Source of the DNA: an uncultured Gammaproteobacteria bacterium
Lineage (GTDB): Bacteria > Patescibacteriota > Microgenomatia > Levybacterales > UBA12049
Direction: 5' to 3'
Assembly (NCBI GenBank): GCA_964391315.1
Contig: CAYMJR010000003.1
Location: 542-64,541, forward strand
DNA: 64,000 nucleotides
A program made the translations under genes and the position numbers. Under the pieces are notes generated by a model, which saw only the letters and a list, made by a program, of their open reading frames with translations, searched no databases and was not told the origin of the DNA. This document shows positions 8,921-59,583 of this stretch, in pieces (within the stretch, counting starts at the first letter, position 1; every line of letters begins with the position of its first letter).

Positions 8921-9724
8921 GTGGGTTATCGATATGAAAACGGAATTACTAAAATAGACTGGCCGGACGCACCGGGCACTACTCCTTTTACCTTAAAACC
9001 TCCCGGTGCAAAACATACTCCATACCCAAAAGATAATACCTATCATCTCTATGATAGAGCTAGCGGAGATCCTACAGATTTTCGTGTACGATTCGATCCT
9101 TCCACATCTGAGGTGATTGTAGTAGATCGAGAAGAAATACTTGTGGATAGAAGAAACTATGCTGATCTTCATAGAAGAAACTATGCTGATCCTCATAGTC
9201 TTGAAAGACTCCGAGAGTTGGCAACTGAAGATTTAGAAATAATTAATGGACAGCCACGTTTTGGAAATGACTATACCATTGTTCCAGTAGATTTTGAGGG
9301 TGATGGCAAATTTGATACAGCCTTCACTGCAACAACGATTTTTCAAAATGACTTACCAAAGAGAAAACAAAGCACCCGAATTGCTCTCAAAGATTGGCTG
9401 GGTTATGATGCTCCAGATGGTGTTGTTCGAGCATATCCTCTGATTTCTAGTCTTTCTAATAAAGAACCAATAAAAGAACAGTTTGGAATTGCTGTCCGCT
9501 ATGGTCAACTAAGAGCTTATGCAACAATTATTGACATGACAACAGGTAACCCTATCGCAGAAAACGCAACTGTTGTTGCTCATGCAACACATGAATATGG
9601 TGGCGGATCAAAATCAAATATGGCCTCTGCTGTTACAAGAAGAGGTATCGTAAGAGGCCCAGATGGTGCTCCTATGTGGTCACCACAACTTCCGACCACT
9701 CGAGGAAGAAGAACGGTAACATAA
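8921..9724 (+). CDS. Hypothetical protein (GTG start)
   Basis: 267-aa ORF with no recognisable motif. It contains an internal 8-aa duplication. Confidence 0.45.
   Translation: MGYRYENGITKIDWPDAPGTTPFTLKPPGAKHTPYPKDNTYHLYDRASGDPTDFRVRFDPSTSEVIVVDREEILVDRRNYADLHRRNYADPHSLERLRELATEDLEIINGQPRFGNDYTIVPVDFEGDGKFDTAFTATTIFQNDLPKRKQSTRIALKDWLGYDAPDGVVRAYPLISSLSNKEPIKEQFGIAVRYGQLRAYATIIDMTTGNPIAENATVVAHATHEYGGGSKSNMASAVTRRGIVRGPDGAPMWSPQLPTTRGRRTVT
9147..9194 (+). repeat. 24-bp in-frame tandem duplication
   Basis: atagaagaaactatgctgatcttc followed by atagaagaaactatgctgatcctc (1 mismatch). It encodes RRNYADLH RRNYADPH. Confidence 0.85.
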
Positions 9725-9725
9725 T

Positions 9726-10625
9726 TTATAGCAAGCCTAATTGCTCCTCGGGTTTGCCGAAAACTGTTTCGTAACGCGCTGTCAAACTTTTAAATCCTTG
9801 TTCTCTAAATCCTTCGAGCAGACTTTTAGGATCAAAATCCGCGCACTTACAGTTATTGATATTAAATTGAATCGGCGCATCGGTAATGATCGTTGCAAGC
9901 TTTTTTGCAAGCGCAGCTTGTTCTGCATCTGTTGCAAGCTTTAACCCAACCTTCTCAGGTAATTCTCCGACTTTGCTGTACAAATTTTCAAATGTACCAA
10001 ATTTTTGTAATAAGCTCGCTGCAGTCTTTGGTCCAATTCCTGTAACTCCTGGATAGCCGTCTGACGCGTCACCAATGAGCGCCTTGTAATCAATGAATTG
10101 TCTGGGATGCACACCGTATTTTTCCTCAACCGCTTTTTCATTGAACATCACCGTCTTTGTAATCCCAACAAGCGGCATTAAGACTTTTACATGGCCATTC
10201 ACAAGTTGCAACATATCCCGGTCTCCGGTTAAAATAACAACCGACATATCCTTTGCGCTTTCAACAGCCTCTTTTGAAATTGTTCCAATCAGATCATCTC
10301 CTTCATACCCATCAAGCTCAAACATCGCCACATGCATCTTTTCCAACAGCTCATGAATCAATATAATCTGATGAACAAACTCATCAGGTAGTTCAGGCCT
10401 GTGCACATGATAGCCGGCAAACATGGTTTGTCTGATGGTTGGTTTGCCTCGATCAAAACAAACAACAAGATGGGTTGGCTCCTGGTCGACAATAACATTC
10501 AGAAGCATAGAGAAAAATCCATACACAGCCTGAACAGGCTCGCCTTTTGTATTGGTTAAAGGAGGCAATGCATGATAAGCCCGATGTATCATCGCATTTC
10601 CATCAATTAATAAAAGCTTATTCAT
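9726..10625 (-). CDS. Stand-alone 5'-3' exonuclease (FEN / Pol I N-terminal domain type)
   Basis: 299-aa ORF. LLLIDGNAMIHRAYHALPPL, GYEGDDLIGT and an H3TH region GIGPKTAASLL. No polymerase domain is attached. Confidence 0.85.
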   Translation of the reverse strand: MNKLLLIDGNAMIHRAYHALPPLTNTKGEPVQAVYGFFSMLLNVIVDQEPTHLVVCFDRGKPTIRQTMFAGYHVHRPELPDEFVHQIILIHELLEKMHVAMFELDGYEGDDLIGTISKEAVESAKDMSVVILTGDRDMLQLVNGHVKVLMPLVGITKTVMFNEKAVEEKYGVHPRQFIDYKALIGDASDGYPGVTGIGPKTAASLLQKFGTFENLYSKVGELPEKVGLKLATDAEQAALAKKLATIITDAPIQFNINNCKCADFDPKSLLEGFREQGFKSLTARYETVFGKPEEQLGLL

Positions 10626-16816: not shown

Positions 16817-16863
16817 AAAGAGGAAGCAATAAATTTTGTACTTTTCACTTTTAACTTATAATG

Positions 16864-16937
16864 TACCAGAGGCGGGGATCGAACCCGCGACCTCAGCGTT
16901 ATGAATGCTGTGCTCTAACCGGCTGAGCTACCCTGGC
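16864..16937 (-). tRNA. tRNA-Met (anticodon CAT), elongator type
   Basis: Hand-folded cloverleaf GCCAGGG/TA/GCTC..GAGC/CAGCA-TTCATAA-CGCTG/GCGGG-TTCGATC-CCCGC/CTCTGGT-A. G1:U72 is paired and there are no initiator features. Ile2(CAT) identity cannot be excluded from sequence alone. CCA is not encoded. Confidence 0.8.
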
Positions 16938-16963: not shown

Positions 16964-16992
16964 TTGACCATGCTTTCCGCAAATGCTATACT
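16964..16992 (+). promoter_or_regulatory. Promoter of the initiator-like tRNA
   Basis: TTGACC (16964-16969), a 17-nt spacer, then TATACT (16987-16992), 12 nt upstream of the tRNA 5' end. Confidence 0.5.
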
Positions 16993-17004: not shown

Positions 17005-17073
17005 CGCGGGGTAGTGTACGGTGCACATGAGGCTCATAATCTTATAGGCTGGGTTCAACTCCCAGCCCCGCAA
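17005..17073 (+). tRNA. Initiator-like tRNA (anticodon CAT), atypical
   Basis: 5' CGCGGGG and 3' CCCCGCA-A match bacterial tRNA-fMet, including the C1:A72 mismatch. Anticodon loop CTCATAA; T arm CTGGG-TTCAACT-CCCAG. It is only 69 nt, has a shortened D arm (GTGTACGGTGCACA), and its anticodon stem is TGAGG/TCTTA rather than three G:C pairs. Confidence 0.6.
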
Positions 17074-17152
17074 CATAAAATTTGTAATCAAATCTAGTAT
17101 TTATTTTATTATCGTTTCCGCCTAGTAGATCTTCCTTGCATTTCACTATTTT

Positions 17153-17755
17153 TTATTTCTGCAAATGTTCTGTTGAACCCAAGTGACCTACAACATACAA
17201 TTTACCCTCACCCATAACGATCTCCGTAATCGAGGAAGGTGGCAATACTCTCTCTAAACCATTCATACCCATCGTTGGAATATCTGTTAATTCATCAGGG
17301 ACAACCCCCATGTATCGTTCATCACTTAGTAAAGCTGCTAAACTATCAGCATGTCCCACAAATGCCATACGGCATATCAGCTGATCTATTGCTCTGTGAA
17401 GTCTGCCTGCTGCCCAATTTACTGGTATACCATTACTTGGGGAAGAATCCCTTTCTGTAAATGACTTCTTCCACTCCTCATGTTCTTCTGGATTGCTCGG
17501 TATAGTTTGAGTCCGTGGATTTAAGAGTGGGTCTCTATCAACATTAGGAAGTCCTATTTCCATAGTAAGTACTTGTGCTGCAGTAAGGGCTCCGGGCGCA
17601 GAACTTGAATGCACGCCCAAAATTCCTTTTTTTCTTAAAGCTCTGCCTGTTACGACTCCATCCTCAATCCCCTGCAACGTCAATGGAGAGTCAATATGAT
17701 TACCAGTTGTCCTTGACTGTGTAATAAATACAACTTCTTTCCGATTGCTGATCAT
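17153..17755 (-). CDS. Histidine-phosphatase (PGAM) superfamily-like protein lacking the RHG motif
   Basis: 200-aa ORF. The layout VVFITQSRTTGN..SPLTLQG..SSSAPGALTAAQV..VGHADSL mirrors the family. The position of the catalytic RHG reads TQS. Confidence 0.4.
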   Translation of the reverse strand: MISNRKEVVFITQSRTTGNHIDSPLTLQGIEDGVVTGRALRKKGILGVHSSSAPGALTAAQVLTMEIGLPNVDRDPLLNPRTQTIPSNPEEHEEWKKSFTERDSSPSNGIPVNWAAGRLHRAIDQLICRMAFVGHADSLAALLSDERYMGVVPDELTDIPTMGMNGLERVLPPSSITEIVMGEGKLYVVGHLGSTEHLQK

Positions 17756-17825
17756 AGATGAGGATTATAGGATAATTCCTTTTGTATTACAATCTTTATT
17801 CCAGGTTAGGAATAAAAACGGATAC

Positions 17826-17875
17826 ATCGGTAGTTGAAAAATAGGTTCTAATTTCATACAACCCCCGCAACATAA
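17826..17875 (+). repeat. tRNA-fMet 3'-end mimic, copy 2 (hairpin plus CCCCGCAACATAA)
   Basis: The 13-mer CCCCGCAACATAA at 17863-17875 is identical to 17066-17078. It is preceded by the hairpin TGAAA..AGGTTCTA..TTTCA (17835-17856). TAGGTTCTAATTT (17842-17854) has a perfect inverted partner at 17886-17898. Confidence 0.7.
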
Positions 17876-18024
17876 GTCTTATACAAAATTAGAACCTAAA
17901 TTTAATTTAGAACTGGTAATCCCTCAAAGACTGCATATTCTTACTACCACAAAATTGAGAAGTTTAAGGATAATTTATAAAAGGGGCTGATTAATCTTTT
18001 TGGCTGTGATTTTGAATGTCGCTT

Positions 18025-18639
18025 TTAACTGTTTCTAGCATGATAATTGGCCACAGCTCGAGCATCAATACCAAACTTATTTCTATAAGTAGAACTATAT
18101 GTCCCACCTATTTGAAGCTCTTTATCTATTTTCTGAACCATACGAGCTCTGTTATAACGTTGTAATGCCACGAGTGCAATTTGAGGAACTGCAAATAGAG
18201 CACTTATTGCTGCTGCAAATGAATACCTTCCTTCTGCCAAACAGAGAAGTGCAAGGGAGCTACTTGGTACAGCAAAAGCTGTATGGACAACTTCGTTACG
18301 GATACTACCAGCAAGAGCAAAATCTGTTGCTGCTTCAATCTTACTTTTACTTCTATCTAATCTATAATTCAACTGATTTTCTTTTCCAGGAAGAGACCCA
18401 GTCCTACTCATAACTACTCTTCTTACGCGAGAAGTTCCAAGTCTTTCATGCCATTGTATACTACGGCCATAATTACGAGGAATAAAATACCCTGCCAGTA
18501 TTTTCCTTCCCCTGCTTGATTCAGCATTTTTTTGTAAATCTGCAAATTTTGGTTTCGCCACGACAGAACTATCGGACGGCATTATGGACGTTTGTGGAGT
18601 TTCTAAATGGTTATGCCTATTAGATATTCTCTCTGCCAT
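18025..18639 (-). CDS. Hypothetical protein with C-terminal hydrophobic segments
   Basis: 204-aa ORF; no family recognised. Confidence 0.4.
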   Translation of the reverse strand: MAERISNRHNHLETPQTSIMPSDSSVVAKPKFADLQKNAESSRGRKILAGYFIPRNYGRSIQWHERLGTSRVRRVVMSRTGSLPGKENQLNYRLDRSKSKIEAATDFALAGSIRNEVVHTAFAVPSSSLALLCLAEGRYSFAAAISALFAVPQIALVALQRYNRARMVQKIDKELQIGGTYSSTYRNKFGIDARAVANYHARNS

Positions 18640-18740
18640 ATTGAGATATTCATTATATCACTTACCAAAACCTAGATCAATATTATAGGTTATAATGATT
18701 CTTTTTTTCTTCAAAATTGGGTATATAATGTATGTGTGGT

Positions 18741-18787
18741 CGCGGTCAGGAAATAGGTTCTAATTTCCTCCAAACCCCGCAACATAA
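18741..18787 (+). repeat. tRNA-fMet acceptor/T-arm mimic, copy 3
   Basis: CGCGGTC, then hairpin AGGAAAT-AGGTTCTA-ATTTCCT (18748-18769), then CCAAA and CCCCGCAACATAA (18775-18787). A TATAAT box at 18724-18729 lies 11 nt upstream. Confidence 0.7.
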
Positions 18788-18802
18788 TTTATAAAGTAAG
18801 TA

Positions 18803-19441
18803 TTACCTTACAAGCTCCCCCAGTAATCCTTGCACTTGCGGTAATACGTAATGTCTAAACTCCTCTTCAGGTATTTGATCTGCAGTATCTCCATCAAATT
18901 CTATCGCAGCTAATGTATTATTAAGATCTCTGTCAGGTAAGCATATTGTTCTTCCATCTTCTTGGATTCTTTTTCTTGCTCGCCTTTCGGCACTATCTCT
19001 CTGAAGTAACCCTCTTGATATAATTTTTCCACCTTCCACTCGCATATGGGTTCCCCACACACCAGGCTCTAGCGAAGGATCTGAGAGATGTGTAATAACA
19101 TCCTCTTTTATCGGATATGACTTTGTGTTCAAGCCAGCCATATAAATAGCTAAAGCAAGTTGATGTTCACTGCTGAGAGGATGTTTATTCCATCCCCTTC
19201 GATCATGCCGGATATATTGTCCTCCTAACAAGGGAAATCCAAACTGTGCAATAACTAAACCAGTAAGATTCATTAACCGATAATCCACAGATCCTGTTTG
19301 ACGGTTATAATTTTCTACACTATCACACCATCTTCCACTATCCATAAAGAGCCTATCTGTTACTCCTTTATATCCTTCTAACGTTGTAGTTTTATTAATA
19401 ATGTTGTGCTGAGCTGTTGGATCTAATATTTCTCGACTCAT
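18803..19441 (-). CDS. Hypothetical protein
   Basis: 212-aa ORF; no family recognised. Confidence 0.45.
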   Translation of the reverse strand: MSREILDPTAQHNIINKTTTLEGYKGVTDRLFMDSGRWCDSVENYNRQTGSVDYRLMNLTGLVIAQFGFPLLGGQYIRHDRRGWNKHPLSSEHQLALAIYMAGLNTKSYPIKEDVITHLSDPSLEPGVWGTHMRVEGGKIISRGLLQRDSAERRARKRIQEDGRTICLPDRDLNNTLAAIEFDGDTADQIPEEEFRHYVLPQVQGLLGELVR

Positions 19442-23541: not shown

Positions 23542-24402
23542 ATGAAGATTATTAAAACTCGCGATGCCCACAAAGAATTTATCGATTTTTTAAAGAGTAA
23601 AAAGCATTCCAGTGCCACTGTTTTGGCATACGGAAAAGATATTGACCAACTTACTTCTTTTCTTGAAGAACTCGACAAACAAAATATTCATGAAGTCTCA
23701 AAAGATGATATTCAGGCTTTTTTGGGCAAACTTTCTGAAAAAGGCTATACTCCAAAATCTCTTTCACGAAAACTTAATTCAACCCGTACTTTTTACCGCT
23801 TTTTAAAGGTAAATGAATACATTACTGATGATCCTTCTCTCTTAGTTTCACATCCACAATATGAATTGGCAGAACCACGAATTCTCAAACCAACAGAATA
23901 TCGAGCACTTCGTGATGCAGCAAGAAACGATGCGAGAATGTACGCAATTATTGAAATGTTGCTTCAAACAGGCATCCGTATCGGAGAACTTGCTGACCTT
24001 CGAACATCAGATGTACTTGATGACAATCTCAATATCCGTCCTCACGAAAAACACGAAGAACGAACTGTTCCAATGAACAAATCAGCCAAAGAAGCACTTA
24101 ACAGATACCTTCAAATCCGTCCAAAAATTGAAGATGACCACATCTTTGTTACTAAGTCCGGTAAGCCTTTCCTGGTCAGAAATATCCGTACAGCAATTGA
24201 ACGATACTTTAGAATCGCAGGTATTGAAAATGCAAAGGTAAATGATCTCAGACATACCTTTGTCGCCCACCACTTAAAGCATGGGGTATCACTCGTTCTT
24301 CTTTCAAAGATTCTTGGACACAAAAGACTTTCAACAACCGAAAGATATCTTGAGTACGTCAAAGAACGTGCCAAAGACACCACAACCCTCAGCGAACTGT
24401 AA
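23542..24402 (+). CDS. Tyrosine recombinase, XerC/XerD family
   Basis: 286-aa ORF with an N-terminal SAM-like domain, catalytic R (TGIRIGEL), LRHTF, and LGHKRLSTTERY with the Tyr nucleophile. Confidence 0.85.
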   Translation: MKIIKTRDAHKEFIDFLKSKKHSSATVLAYGKDIDQLTSFLEELDKQNIHEVSKDDIQAFLGKLSEKGYTPKSLSRKLNSTRTFYRFLKVNEYITDDPSLLVSHPQYELAEPRILKPTEYRALRDAARNDARMYAIIEMLLQTGIRIGELADLRTSDVLDDNLNIRPHEKHEERTVPMNKSAKEALNRYLQIRPKIEDDHIFVTKSGKPFLVRNIRTAIERYFRIAGIENAKVNDLRHTFVAHHLKHGVSLVLLSKILGHKRLSTTERYLEYVKERAKDTTTLSEL

Positions 24403-24967: not shown

Positions 24968-25042
24968 TGGTGCGTCTGGCTGGACTCGAACCAACGACAG
25001 GCTGTGTATAAGACAGCTGCTCTACCACTGAGCTACAGACGC
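24968..25042 (-). tRNA. tRNA-Ile (anticodon TAT), CCA encoded
   Basis: Hand fold: GCGTCTG/TA/GCTC-AGTGGTA-GAGC/A/GCTGT-CTTATAC-ACAGC/CTGTC/GTTGG-TTCGAGT-CCAGC/CAGACGC-A-CCA. Confidence 0.8.
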
Positions 25043-30961: not shown

Positions 30962-31085
30962 AAAAAAACTCCTCGTTTCCGAGAAGTTGCAAAAACAGTT
31001 GCTTCTAGCTCGGAAGACTTTATTTGGGGATCTGACTGTACAGTTACGGCATAGTGCTCGAATTTCACGAGCTTCACCCACCAAT
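30962..31085 (-). promoter_or_regulatory. Cobalamin-riboswitch-like leader 2
   Basis: Minus-strand read: GGGTGAAG-CTCG TGAAATT CGAG-CACTAT-GCCGTAACTGTA...GAGCTAGAAGCAACTGT. An alternative pairing TTCCGAG/CTCGGAA competes with the hairpin AACTTCTCG-GAAA-CGAGGAGTT, which is followed by T7 and the ATG. Confidence 0.6.
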
Positions 31086-31088
31086 TAA

Positions 31089-31628
31089 TTATTTTTTAAT
31101 CCACTTTATCTCTTTTTTCTTATCAATGTGATTGACATATCGAGCCATAGTAAAAAGTAAGTCTGAAAGCCTGTTTAAATAGATAACAACAGCCTGATCA
31201 ACATCTTCTTTCTGCATAAGCTCTACTAATTGCCTCTCAGCGCGCCGTGTAATCGTCCTGGCCACATGTAACAGTGAGCCAGGCTGCCCACCCCCAGGAA
31301 GGATAAAATATTTGATTTCAGGCATTTTGGCGGTCATCTCATCAATAAGCTTTTCAAACTCCTTTGGACGTTGATTCAAACCTACCACTGGTAATGGGTG
31401 CGGTGTTGCAAGCGCAGAGCCAATATCAAATAAATCGTGCTGGATTTTTTCAAGTTCCTTTTTTACAAGGCTGTGGGGGGCTGTCAGATGTGCTATGACA
31501 GCACCAATTGTGCTATTAAGCTCATCAACCGTTCCATAGCTATCAACCCGTGGATGAGATTTTAGTACTCGCGTACCGTCAAATAATGATGTTTTCCCTT
31601 TATCTCCTGTTCGTGTGTAAATTGCCAT
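31089..31628 (-). CDS. pduO: ATP:cob(I)alamin adenosyltransferase, PduO type
   Basis: 179-aa ORF with N-terminal IYTRTGDKGKTSL and PduO/MMAB-like sequence throughout. Confidence 0.85.
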   Translation of the reverse strand: MAIYTRTGDKGKTSLFDGTRVLKSHPRVDSYGTVDELNSTIGAVIAHLTAPHSLVKKELEKIQHDLFDIGSALATPHPLPVVGLNQRPKEFEKLIDEMTAKMPEIKYFILPGGGQPGSLLHVARTITRRAERQLVELMQKEDVDQAVVIYLNRLSDLLFTMARYVNHIDKKKEIKWIKK

Positions 31629-31790
31629 AAAAAAATCCCTCTTGGTTTCCCGAGAAGGATTGCATGGATAATACAGAAATTCCTGCTCGGGAGAAAAGCT
31701 TAAAGCGAGTTTTCTGTCTATACAGTAGCGGCACTAATAAGGAATTTCACCTTAATTTCCTACACTTTAAGTTTAATTACTTTATCATGA
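31629..31790 (-). promoter_or_regulatory. Cobalamin-riboswitch-like leader 1
   Basis: Minus-strand read: GTAGGAAATT-AAGG TGAAATT CCTT-ATTA-GTGCCGCTACTGTA...GAGCAGGAATTTCTGT. Compare the conserved core GGGAA..GGUGAAAAUCC..GCCCCCGCAACUGUA and the B12 box AGCCAGGAGACCUGCC. The alternative pairing TCCCGAG/CTCGGGA competes with a GAAA-loop hairpin that covers the SD, followed by T7 and the ATG. The 5' boundary is approximate. Confidence 0.65.
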
Positions 31791-57460: not shown

Positions 57461-57879
57461 GGGGATGACTTGATTCGACGAGATTTGTTCTTTAAAAACT
57501 GCAAGCCGACTTTGATACTAGTCGTAAAACAGATCAAAATATAAATGCTAAATCTAGCATTTTCGCACGTCTTGATGCGAAGATCGCAGCCCTCCAGGCT
57601 CGATTGGAAGCTCTTGACGGAGCTGGCCGACAAGCTTATCTTTTTGCTTAAGCTTTAAAGCCTGTTCATACTTCTCTTCCCTCACTGGGAGGGTATGGGC
57701 ATAAATACAGGTGAGGAAAGTAGTAGAGAGTTTGGTTTAGCTTTCTGCCGCATTTTTTAAACCTATACGTTGTTATTCCTGCCAATTGGAAACGGCAGCG
57801 CGAATTATATAAATTGGCTACGCTTGTAGACGTTCTTAAAAATATTTTTCGGACTCCGATTCATTGTCGGACATCTCCA
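57461..57879 (+). ncRNA. ssrA: Transfer-messenger RNA
   Basis: The 5' end is GGGGATGACTTGATTCGACG. The 3' T arm is TCCGA-TTCATTG-TCGGA, with acceptor strand CATCTCC-A pairing to GGGGATG. A tag-like frame ends ..GRQAYLFA-TAA (57646-57651). CCA is not encoded. Confidence 0.8.
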
Positions 57880-57885
57880 CACCTA

Positions 57886-59497: not shown

Positions 59498-59498
59498 G

Positions 59499-59583
59499 CG
59501 GAGAGGGTGGGATTCGAACCCACGGTATCTTGCGACACGGAGGTTTAGTAAACCTCTGCACTCGGCCACTATGCGACCTCTCC
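59499..59583 (-). tRNA. tRNA-Ser, anticodon ACT (unusual A34)
   Basis: Type II fold: GGAGAGG/TC/GCA..TGC/A/GAGGT-TTACTAA-ACCTC/long arm GTGTC-GCAA-GATAC/TGGG-TTCGAAT-CCCA/CCCTCTCC with G73. Confidence 0.7.

Follow-up and report, generated by a model that had tools for sequence, protein, structure and literature searches.

The three exact copies of a 13-mer that lie at and behind the 3' end of the initiator tRNA gene are probably the junction repeats of a family of integrase-less cassettes, two of which are stacked behind this tRNA, with the recombinase supplied in trans; a probability of about 0.7 was assigned to this reading. The copies are located in a 64-kb stretch of DNA, referred to below as the window, and the second and third of them belong to the ~75-bp right ends of two tandem single-gene cassettes. 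The 1.7 kb involved was shown to be an insertion relative to two related genomes, L105 and L108. The locus comprises the following features.

16863-16937, minus strand: elongator-type tRNA-Met, the second CAT tRNA (ARAGORN; Rfam tRNA, 63.3 bits)
16964-16992, plus strand: initiator tRNA promoter TTGACC-17-TATACT, with TG before the -10 element; kept in relatives
17005-17073, plus strand: initiator-type tRNA-Met(CAU) (ARAGORN, 17005-17074; Rfam tRNA, 44.8 bits)
17066-17078, plus strand: core copy 1, CCCCGCAACATAA, made up of the tRNA 3' strand, discriminator base and 5-nt trailer; putative left junction (attL-type)
17079-17875, plus strand: cassette 1, 797 bp, not in L105 or L108
17153-17755, minus strand: cargo gene 1, 200 aa, weak His-phosphatase-like match, orphan in sequence space
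17798-17875, plus strand: right-end module of cassette 1 (copy 2), nhmmer profile match at 17798-17871, E = 1e-13
17876-18787, plus strand: cassette 2, 912 bp, not in L105 or L108
18025-18639, minus strand: cargo gene 2, 204 aa, CrtO-family small membrane acyltransferase-like (Pfam CrtO, 31.6 bits)
18711-18787, plus strand: right-end module of cassette 2 (copy 3; putative attR-type right junction), nhmmer match at 18711-18783, E = 3.9e-15
18788-19441, minus strand: hyp212 (212 aa), the original downstream flank ('B'' arm), with its stop 19 nt after the CAAC of copy 3

The array is flanked by murI and the tRNA pair on one side and by hyp212 on the other. In L105, which encodes the closest MurI (75%), the tRNA-fMet gene is followed by 17 nt and then by the stop codon of a hyp212 homologue (44% identical). 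L108 (FtsH 89%, Xer 96% identical) carries a tRNA identical to that of the window and no module, and its tRNA trailer, ATAATTT, is the same as the trailer after copy 3 in the window. BLAST homology to the window ends at 17078 in L108 and at 17075 in L105. The synteny comparison that the earlier note had proposed thus identified the region 17074-18787 as an insertion and both relatives as carriers of the uninterrupted, empty site. An intact module was present in 0 of 11 relatives retrieved without bias, and the family is therefore patchy; in L112, a module located between a 147-aa ORF and murI has decayed in place.

The exact 13-mer CCCCGCAACATAA occurs at 17066-17078, 17863-17875 and 18775-18787, always on the plus strand, as had been noticed from the sequence, and nowhere else in the 64-kb window. 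A chance origin was ruled out by the 0 exact matches obtained across 100 shuffled sequences. A generic repeat was ruled out as well, since the motif is absent from the rest of the window and the ends of the other window tRNAs are unrepeated; the initiator tRNA is the only one among them with a repeated 3' end. A 37-nt block is common to copies 2 and 3 (17839-17875 and 18751-18787; 92% identity), whereas the tRNA matches this block at only 62%, essentially through the 13-mer. No tRNA match was obtained in copies 2 and 3 even at E <= 10.

The right-end module ends in a copy of the last 9 nt of the tRNA, CCCCGCAAC, followed here by the trailer ATAA. In copy 2 the module consists of a degenerate promoter-like box (~17801-17819), the TAGGTTCTAATTTC block and the core at 17863-17875. 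In copy 3 it consists of the box CAAAATTGGGTATATAAT (18712-18729), the hairpin AGGAAAT/ATTTCCT and the core at 18775-18787. The TATAAT of this box (18724-18729) lies 11 nt 5' of the CGCGG at 18741-18745, in agreement with the earlier note, and the perfect 13-bp inverted repeat described around copy 2 is real (17842-17854 and 17886-17898). Because the 13-mers close the right-end module of each cassette, they are taken as the junction cores.

The units of about 0.8 and 0.9 kb seen between the copies, each with one minus-strand gene, correspond to cassettes of 797 and 912 bp with ORFs at 17153-17755 and 18025-18639. Cassette 1 comprises a left-end box, CAAATCTAGTATTTAT (17089-17104), a single minus-strand gene and its own right-end module. 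In cassette 2 the left end, AAATTAGAACCTA (17886-17898), is inverted relative to the right-end TAGGTTCTAATTT (18754-18766) of the same cassette. Each cargo gene has a promoter-like site of its own, TTGTAA-17-TATAAT at 17792-17764 for gene 1 and TTGATC-17-TATAAT at 18680-18652 for gene 2. The match of cargo protein 1 to Pfam His_Phos_1 (21.3 bits) falls below the cutoff of 21.7, and a search of 5.8 billion proteins returned only the protein itself. The best homologues of cargo protein 2 are at most 53% identical, and the few with a named source come from Saccharimonadales/Saccharibacteria. Cargo proteins 1 and 2 are not paralogous, and neither PADLOC nor NCBIfam gave a defence match for the cargo of the window.

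The possibility that the cargo travels together with the module was considered and rejected: the two closest CrtO-like homologues that were looked up lie in unrelated contexts with no module nearby, and the His-phosphatase-like protein has no homologues. The same arrangement was found in 13 of 13 public contigs (from two sets of sequencing runs) that encode both cargo proteins; occupancy does not vary among these 13 contigs, which give no sign of current mobility.

The right-end module is present in about 22 further contigs of candidate-phyla-radiation (CPR) bacteria. A scan with a 20-base pattern returned 30 metagenome stretches, of which ~26 are genuine, and the profile search yielded 36 distinct module copies. 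The matches in L073/L093/L100, L083 and L075 were judged to be chance hits; by a rough estimate, a 20-base pattern could yield a handful of these in a collection of this size. The large serine recombinase of L073 is 7 kb distant, in a context that is not CPR-like. In all eight stretches that contain the tRNA, module copies lie 0.5-2 kb downstream of it on the same strand. Other genomes likewise have variable single-gene inserts behind this tRNA that are bounded by the module. The largest array has six copies (L084); L074, L085 and L087 have three each and L098 has two behind the tRNA. No tRNA-fMet was found within 7.1 kb upstream of the array in L074 or within 4.2 kb upstream of that in L087.

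The 22 bounded cassettes, from about 14 genomes, range from 436 to 2093 bp (median 896 bp). Their cargo is diverse and accessory and includes Fic/DOC (four cases), a retron-type reverse transcriptase, BrnT, PIN, MazE/PhoU, hydrolases and inositol monophosphatase. A tyrosine, serine or Y1 recombinase was found neither in these 22 nor in the two cassettes of the window. Comparison of cassettes between genomes revealed only a distant Fic-Fic similarity (65-68% at the nucleotide level). The extension of the core past the universal 9-mer averages 2.5 nt within genomes versus 1.0 nt between genomes (permutation p = 0.0009). Left ends are heterogeneous across the family, and one uniform attP can therefore not be reconstructed, though some left-end types recur among genomes. 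Inverted left-end arms follow the tRNA in L094 and copy 2 in the window, and an inverted tRNA-like GGGGCTTGGAGGGTTGAACC is found in L081, L089 and L090.

These data bear on the proposal, improbable in our view, that the cassettes are what decay has left of larger islands, prophages or ICE/IME with an integrase gene, now reduced to one gene and att repeats, which is the classical origin of islets or cis-mobilizable elements. Degenerate remnants and tandem integration with repeats of part of a tRNA are well documented elsewhere (10.1101/2020.12.28.424599), and PMC3146451 appears to describe Dehalococcoides islands at ssrA. The module decaying in place in L112 and the uniformity of the window's population would also fit. 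Against such an origin, an integrase fragment was found in none of the 22 bounded cassettes, their sizes cluster tightly near 0.9 kb, and the 75-bp right end and the recurrent left-end types are kept across genomes, unlike the outcome of independent decay. The only match to the site in IMG/VR phages has a different spacing, is surrounded by phage structural genes and was attributed to chance. No autonomous parent element was found in the retrieved stretches or in IMG/VR. One of the two readings in the earlier note was that of decayed att scars, left at the 3' end of tRNA-fMet by serial integrations, with the integrase gone; the att repeats, the serial integration and the missing integrase are supported, whereas the decay is not, because the end modules form a conserved 75-bp family.

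In the preferred reading, that of intact cassettes mobilized in trans, each unit is built from a short left end, a single accessory gene that has its own promoter-like site, and the conserved right-end module of ~75 bp. Cassettes would enter as circles by conservative site-specific recombination, in which the module core may pair with the tRNA 3' end or with the core of another module. The 3' end of the initiator tRNA serves as the attachment target (the 'B' arm). The crossover would fall at tRNA positions 73-74 or immediately 3' of them, which would keep the tRNA from ever being disrupted. On this model the first core would be the junction between tRNA and cassette 1 (attL-like), the second that between cassettes 1 and 2, a hybrid of right end, core and left end, and the third that between cassette 2 and the original flank (attR-like). 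The module block TAGGTTC...CTCC...CCCCGCAAC resembles the DNA of the tRNA T-arm and acceptor and is inverted in some left ends. Such a block, together with its inverted left-end copies, would offer a recombinase similar half-sites on target and cassette.

The recombinase would act in trans, and candidates are an unlinked integrase, a helper element and possibly the product of the neighbouring gene:

23542-24402, plus strand: Xer-type tyrosine recombinase (Pfam Phage_integrase, 8.6e-30)

No site-specific recombinase other than this one, whether of the tyrosine, serine or Y1 type, was found in the window. It lies 4.7 kb from the array and is XerD/XerC/XerA-like, with scores below the trusted cutoffs and far below those for integron integrases. 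Inspection of the core revealed nothing like a dif site, and the GC skew runs monotonically, with no terminus here. The gene is equally present in cassette-free relatives (96% identical in L108), and Xer is regarded only as a candidate for the trans-acting enzyme.

The module also has features that may relate to transcription. A promoter-like box, CAAATCTGGTATAAAT, stands at a fixed distance within the module family, and transcription of the module is therefore possible. An extended -10-like box occurs ~45 nt 5' of the hairpin in most copies and nearly nowhere else in 258 kb. When the flanks were read by eye, terminator-like hairpins were seen 10-30 nt after many copies, for instance after all three in L087. 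The box and these hairpins suggest a part in transcription, for which plain att sites would have no need.

It is distinctly improbable, nevertheless, that the modules are small transcribed RNA genes (a tRNA-fMet-like minihelix or another sRNA) with their own promoter and terminator and a position that reflects their function. The box conserved in most copies and the intrinsic-terminator-like hairpins speak for such genes, as do the strong folding of a minority of modules (z = -5.0 in L084 and -5.3 in L098) and, in the window, the folding of copy 3 (plus strand, z = -1.4; minus strand, z = -3.1). Across 35 copies, however, the hairpin shows no covariation and is paired at 81.6% as against 81.3% in shuffles, only 40.6% of cells show pairing in the acceptor-like closing helix, and the mean folding z-score is -0.53, with 4 of 35 copies below -2. 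Copy 2 folds no better than shuffled sequence (z = -0.23 and +0.26), and its hairpin can form only if an A/T run slips by one base, so that the stems are not compensatory in register. Since 5-6 unpaired bases separate the hairpin from CCCCGCA, the geometry differs from that of a stacked T-arm/acceptor minihelix. By our own reading, the pairing 5' strand also covers the discriminator base and C74, which leaves no free acceptor end, and no Rfam family matched the module at the gathering score or at E <= 10. Both the view that compensatory stems and retained promoter geometry favour some selection on structure and that of a transcribed tRNA-like minihelix, put forward in the earlier note, have to be abandoned on these figures. 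Small RNA genes would also leave the empty sites and the genome-specific core extension unexplained. The small-RNA and cassette readings are compatible with each other, as one module could act as a junction and at the same time as an outward promoter.

The initiator tRNA gene itself is intact and lineage-typical. Its match to the RF00005 cloverleaf, at 44.8 bits, exceeds the gathering score of 29; the anticodon is CAU and the 1:72 position (C1xA72) is marked as unpaired in the Rfam alignment. Rfam bore out the C1:A72 mismatch and the length of 69 nt, ARAGORN the tRNA-Met(CAT) identity, and the gene's own promoter is present where it had been placed. The D loop is short, and the anticodon stem A29:U41/G30:C40/G31·U39 stands in place of three consecutive G:C pairs at 29-31:39-41. 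The idea that initiator identity is eroded does not hold: neither this stem nor the short D arm varies among 13 distinct relatives, in which the other stems show compensatory changes, and the au/GC/gu anticodon stem is a documented natural initiator type in other bacteria (PMC5389676). The unconventional initiators of some mycoplasmas and alpha-proteobacteria likewise combine A29:U41, G30:C40 and G31·U39 with C1xA72 and a CAU anticodon (PMC5389676); the present one differs from them in its CPR host, its shortened D loop and U11:A24 instead of A11:U24. In three relatives a weak U1:A72 pair replaces C1xA72, and in some a CGC T-loop or a group I intron is found. By this comparison, an entire CPR clade relies on an initiator tRNA in which the D loop is shortened and only one of the three 'universal' G:C pairs is present.

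The divergent elongator/initiator pair is a conserved left anchor, found in the same form in L001, L003, L105, L107 and L108. ARAGORN called only these two CAT tRNAs in the 64-kb window, and a tRNA-Ile(UAU) at 24968-25042 covers AUA, which makes a CAU-type tRNA-Ile unnecessary.

Hardly credible is an origin of the copies as pseudogene relics of tandem duplications of the initiator tRNA and its promoter, between which unrelated genes landed later: the module box does resemble the -10 region of the tRNA promoter (CAAAT-GGTATA), and GTGAGGCT, AGG, TAGGTTC and CTCC follow in tRNA order in some copies (e.g. L074 and L096), but these are short resemblances, and a profile of 16 tRNA genes with their promoters gave no significant nhmmer match in 25 modules stripped of the 9-nt core, relatives have a single tRNA copy followed by the same downstream gene, the alignment suggests that modules group with one another across genomes, and the same internally 'deleted' form is common to many genomes, which implies one origin followed by spread.

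The cassettes were compared with known systems. The concept of CIMEs and accretion describes recombinase-less, cis-mobilizable elements stacked at the 3' ends of tRNA or tmRNA genes, and here too att-type repeats surround the units, which lack recombination and transfer genes. As with site-specific integrative elements, the insert lies between direct repeats of the tRNA 3' end and has left the tRNA intact; an integrase next to the att site was not found. Tycheposons and accreted elements likewise target a tRNA 3' end that stays intact, are surrounded unit by unit by tRNA-end direct repeats with new units beside old ones, and carry accessory or defence-type cargo, with some units devoid of recombination genes (10.1101/2020.12.28.424599). 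Unlike tycheposons and CIMEs, the present units are only 0.44-2.1 kb long, usually contain one gene and never an integrase, end in a conserved 75-bp module with a promoter-like box, and reside in CPR/Patescibacteria hosts.

Integron arrays share with them single-gene cassettes of ~0.5-1 kb at one fixed chromosomal site, a conserved and partly palindromic recombination-site-like module at the cassette end with no recombinase encoded, and cargo with many toxin-antitoxin genes and genes without a known function. They differ in that no IntI with attI and Pc was found beside the array, which is anchored at a tRNA gene; that inspection showed GTTG...CAAC at best and no R''(RYYYAAC)...R'(GTTRRRY) arrangement; that the module, unlike attC, shows no structural covariation; and that cargo orientation is mixed, with promoter-like sites of its own. 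IMEX/pdif modules, which borrow the Xer recombinase of the host, are also small, recombinase-less and stacked at one site, and a conserved Xer gene lies 1-7 kb away in the cassette lineage. In contrast to IMEX/pdif, inspection revealed no 11-6-11 dif-like site at the core, the GC skew does not place a terminus here and the Xer linkage is equally present in cassette-free genomes. A DDE transposon or MITE differs further: the inverted repeats are sub-terminal here (10 and 21 nt in from the ends), the 'duplicated' core sits inside a module conserved across genomes, and only one target site is used. Literature searches brought up no earlier account of cassette arrays anchored at tRNA-fMet in CPR.

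A broader interpretation is put forward tentatively and, on balance, seems rather doubtful. The arrays may represent an independently evolved, integron-like cassette capture in CPR bacteria of the Microgenomates type, with the tRNA 3' end acting as attI, the 75-bp and possibly tRNA-derived module with its outward promoter acting as attC, a recombinase in trans (possibly Xer) and arrays that stockpile defence, toxin and accessory genes.

Genomes of CPR/Patescibacteria are tiny. To our knowledge few mobile elements have been described in these bacteria, and their acquisition of accessory and defence genes is poorly understood. A recurrent and precisely bounded insertion point behind the initiator tRNA provides a testable route of gene gain for CPR, and the 75-bp module a searchable marker for cassette arrays in metagenomes. 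If the recombinase were the housekeeping Xer or a new enzyme, integron-like cassette capture would have been invented independently; if the integron-like interpretation is true, it would mean gene stockpiling in genomes otherwise considered poor in mobile elements.

The window has a G+C content of about 40 % and belongs to a genome of CPR/Patescibacteria type; the closest murI loci are found in MAGs, the sole informatively named one being Candidatus Levybacteria. The following features were located:

16863-16937, second tRNA(CAT), divergent neighbour of the tRNA at 17005 (ARAGORN, Rfam)
16964-16992, promoter of the tRNA at 17005, TTGACC-17-TATACT
17005-17073/4, initiator tRNA(CAT), 69-70 nt (called by both ARAGORN and Rfam)
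17079-17875, cassette 1, with one minus-strand cargo gene
17876-18787, cassette 2, with one minus-strand cargo gene
23542-24402, Xer-type recombinase, the only recombinase in the window
24968-25042 (-), tRNA-Ile(UAU) (ARAGORN)

The 13-mer CCCCGCAACATAA occurs exactly at 17066 (copy 1, the 3' end of the initiator tRNA), 17863 (copy 2) and 18775 (copy 3), with no further copies on either strand of the window and zero copies in shuffled windows. Copies 2 and 3 also have in common a 37-nt block of 92 % identity, and the tRNA has little in common with them outside the 13-mer. The observation made in the earlier note was confirmed: the inverted repeat of 13 bp that encloses copy 2, the TATAAT located 11 nt upstream of CGCGG in copy 3 and the spacing of 797 and 912 bp with one minus-strand ORF apiece all agree with that description.

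A search pattern derived from copies 2 and 3, GGTTCTAATTT-N5-12-CCCCGCAAC, matched 30 metagenome stretches, of which about four look like chance. The others share an architecture of ~75 nt, the module that forms the right end of a cassette, comprising from 5' to 3':

a CAAATCTGGTATAAAT-like box
a variable segment
a block prone to hairpin formation, AGGAAAT-AGGTTCTA-ATTTCCT or variants
ATTTCYTCCARNCCCCGCAAC, almost invariant

The profile built from the pattern matches gave 36 distinct module copies. All eight stretches carrying the same 70-nt initiator tRNA have modules 0.5-2 kb downstream of it on the same strand. Two copies stand behind the tRNA in L098 (L-numbers denote retrieved contigs or metagenome stretches of relatives or module carriers), three apiece were found in L074, L085 and L087, and the array of L084 holds six within 4.8 kb; the arrays of L074 and L087 have no tRNA for several kb upstream. 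The 22 bounded cassettes range in length from 436 to 2093 bp (median 896 bp). On these matches the repeats are assigned to a widespread module family.

The window is syntenic with L001 and L003 in the order FtsH-MurD-MurI-tRNA pair-variable region-RadC-HTH. Two closer relatives, L105 and L108, were decisive. In L105, whose MurI is 75 % identical to that of the window, the stop codon of a 214-aa protein lies 17 nt after the tRNA CAAC; the 212-aa protein of the window (18803-19441), 44 % identical to it, has its stop codon 19 nt beyond the copy-3 CAAC. L108 (FtsH 89 %, MurD 86 % and Xer 96 % identical to the window) contains no module. Its tRNA matches that of the window at every base, and the trailer behind it, ATAATTT, equals the 7 nt after copy 3 and differs from the 7 nt after the tRNA in the window. 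Where the first 13-mer ends, at 17075-17078, the BLAST homology of both L105 and L108 to the window breaks off. The stop in homology, together with the matching trailer and stop codon, marks 17079-18787 as a pair of units that were inserted between the tRNA and the sequence originally flanking it. In a motif-blind sample none of the 11 relatives retrieved through MurI had an intact module, so the family is patchy, as acquired DNA would be. One of the 11, L112, has a decayed copy (9890-9975), flanked by a 147-aa ORF and murI and situated downstream of an intron-containing tRNA-fMet. This copy retains the box and the TAGGTTCTC block, and its core is degraded to CGTCACAATC.

The universally conserved core is a 9-mer, CCCCGCAAC, past which the identity of tRNA end and module end extends by 1-4 nt within each genome (ATAA in the window, AAG in L078, AGAG in L081, TGA in L089). 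On average the extension amounts to 2.5 nt within genomes and 1.0 nt between them (permutation p = 0.0009), which favours recombination junctions over independent constraint as the origin of the cores. At some left ends only, module blocks are found inverted: AAATTAGAACC stands behind the tRNA of L094 and behind copy 2 of the window, and GGGGCTTGGAGGGTTGAACC, an inverted T-arm/acceptor-like sequence, is located at left ends in L081, L089 and L090. A joined right end, core and left end would thus form an imperfect palindrome on the last bases of the tRNA. The perfect inverted repeat in which the earlier note placed copy 2 is real; it arises where the two cassettes meet, with cassette 1 contributing its right end and cassette 2 its left end. 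The partner repeat of the cassette 2 left end sits at 18754-18766, within the right end of cassette 2 itself.

Most probably the cassettes insert by conservative site-specific recombination, in which a trans-supplied enzyme recombines the core of a cassette with the tRNA 3' end or with another module. Crossover at or just after CAAC would leave the tRNA intact and push older cassettes outward. The Xer gene is linked to the tRNA locus in all relatives and 96 % conserved in the cassette-free L108; it is at most a candidate for this enzyme. The arrangement is identical in all 13 public contigs that carry the cargo proteins of the window, so nothing points to cassettes still moving in this population.

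The compensatory stems and tRNA-like minihelices proposed previously did not hold up. An alignment of 35 copies has 81.6 % of its hairpin cells paired, compared with 81.3 % in shuffled versions, with one double change and no excess of covariation. The acceptor-like closing helix is paired in just 40.6 % of cells, folding z-scores average -0.53 (below -2 in 4 of 35 copies, +0.26 for copy 2 of the window), and no Rfam family matches the modules. What is conserved is sequence, as would be expected of a DNA site bound by protein more than of a structured RNA. Transcription of the modules is nonetheless conceivable. The CAAATCTGGTATAAAT-like box is almost confined to modules, with one copy directly after the window's tRNA at 17089, and resembles the extended -10 region of the tRNA gene; an outward promoter reading into the next cassette would be a reasonable secondary role of the module. 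Terminator-like hairpins after many modules (flanks read by eye) may be nothing more than the terminator that first belonged to the tRNA, or the beginning of the following cassette.

The cargo varies between genomes and lies in either orientation. It includes four Fic/DOC proteins, BrnT, PIN, MazE/PhoU, hydrolases, inositol monophosphatase, a retron-type reverse transcriptase and numerous proteins with no assigned function; none of the cassettes examined was found to encode a tyrosine, serine or Y1 recombinase. The reverse transcriptase cassette (L087 4282-5322 (-); Pfam RVT_1; PADLOC RT_VI 6.5e-29), in which the adjoining gene encodes an HTH + HATPase + DUF4325 protein, indicates that cassettes can hold defence-like genes. 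Small ORFs with a GIY-YIG nuclease domain recur in the variable region by the tRNA pair of several relatives, that of L097 being cargo directly behind the tRNA; they may be connected with homing or with the tRNA intron:

L097 ~250-500, GIY-YIG ORF
L111 8994-9278, GIY-YIG ORF
L112 7904-8161, GIY-YIG ORF
L113 8505-8774, GIY-YIG ORF

In the histidine-phosphatase-like cargo protein of the window (17153-17755 (-)) the RHG motif is apparently absent, with QSR instead (N-terminus read by eye), and among 5.8 billion clustered proteins only the protein itself was recovered. TTGnnn-17-TATAAT sequences at 17764-17792 (-) and 18652-18680 (-) end 8-12 nt before the ATGs of the cassette genes, suggesting transcripts with no leader or almost none; promoter-like sites are no more numerous in the region than expected by chance.

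For the initiator tRNA, 16 distinct genes were gathered from related contigs and 13 distinct sequences aligned. The short D arm (4-bp stem, 5-6-nt loop) and A29:U41, G30:C40 and G31·U39 are invariant, double compensatory changes occur at six other pairs of the anticodon and T stems, and the promoter is likewise conserved in relatives. Some mycoplasmas and alpha-proteobacteria are documented to have the au/GC/gu stem as a natural variant of the initiator (PMC5389676). "Eroded", as the initiator identity had been called, is therefore the wrong word; the comparison identifies the 17005 tRNA as a conserved unconventional initiator, normal for its own lineage. The tRNA-Ile(UAU) allows the two CAT tRNAs to be assigned as initiator and elongator. 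Its position a few kb from the tRNA-Met pair is conserved across the clade (L001, L003, L005, L006, L108 and L111-L113), which suggests that AUA is read without a lysidine-modified CAU tRNA. The T loop of tRNA-fMet is CGCAACU, not UUCAACU, in L004, L005, L006, L092 and L094, so that the usual T54-Psi55 positions are missing, and position 1 is U, giving a U1:A72 pair, in L078, L094 and L097. A group I intron interrupts the anticodon loop in L113 (9701-9923; Rfam Intron_gpI, 78.4 bits, E = 5e-20), the contig on which this call was run; in L112 (~9100-9290) an intron is deduced from matching sequence upstream of the 3' exon. ARAGORN gave no call for these two split genes.

The window also encodes a tRNA-Ser with anticodon ACT (59498-59583 (-), ARAGORN), clustered with tRNA-Ser GCT and TGA; to our knowledge A34 is unusual in bacterial tRNAs except tRNA-Arg(ACG). 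The 3' end of the tmRNA gene (57461-57882 (+), Rfam 110.5 bits) has no repeat within the window. Two AdoCbl-II (cobalamin) riboswitch matches, 0.7 kb apart (31019-31092 and 31700-31770 (-)), reach 40.5 and 37.5 bits, slightly over the Rfam gathering score of 36.5; a tandem or duplicated pair of B12 riboswitches would merit a check in a CPR genome.

An integron was rejected on its defining tests, with no IntI/attI and no attC architecture found, as was a DDE transposon on its own. In kind, tandem integration at a tRNA 3' end is well known. Accretion arrays with CIMEs are one example. Tycheposon islands are another (10.1101/2020.12.28.424599), and islands at ssrA are reported for Dehalococcoides (PMC3146451). 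Literature searches returned no prior description of tRNA-fMet-anchored cassette arrays in CPR. Unlike the known tandem integrations, the units found here are uniformly tiny and without a recombinase, have in common a conserved 75-bp end that includes a promoter-like box, form arrays resembling those of integrons and reside in a CPR lineage. That they constitute an independent integron-like capture system is a tentative and rather unlikely reading.
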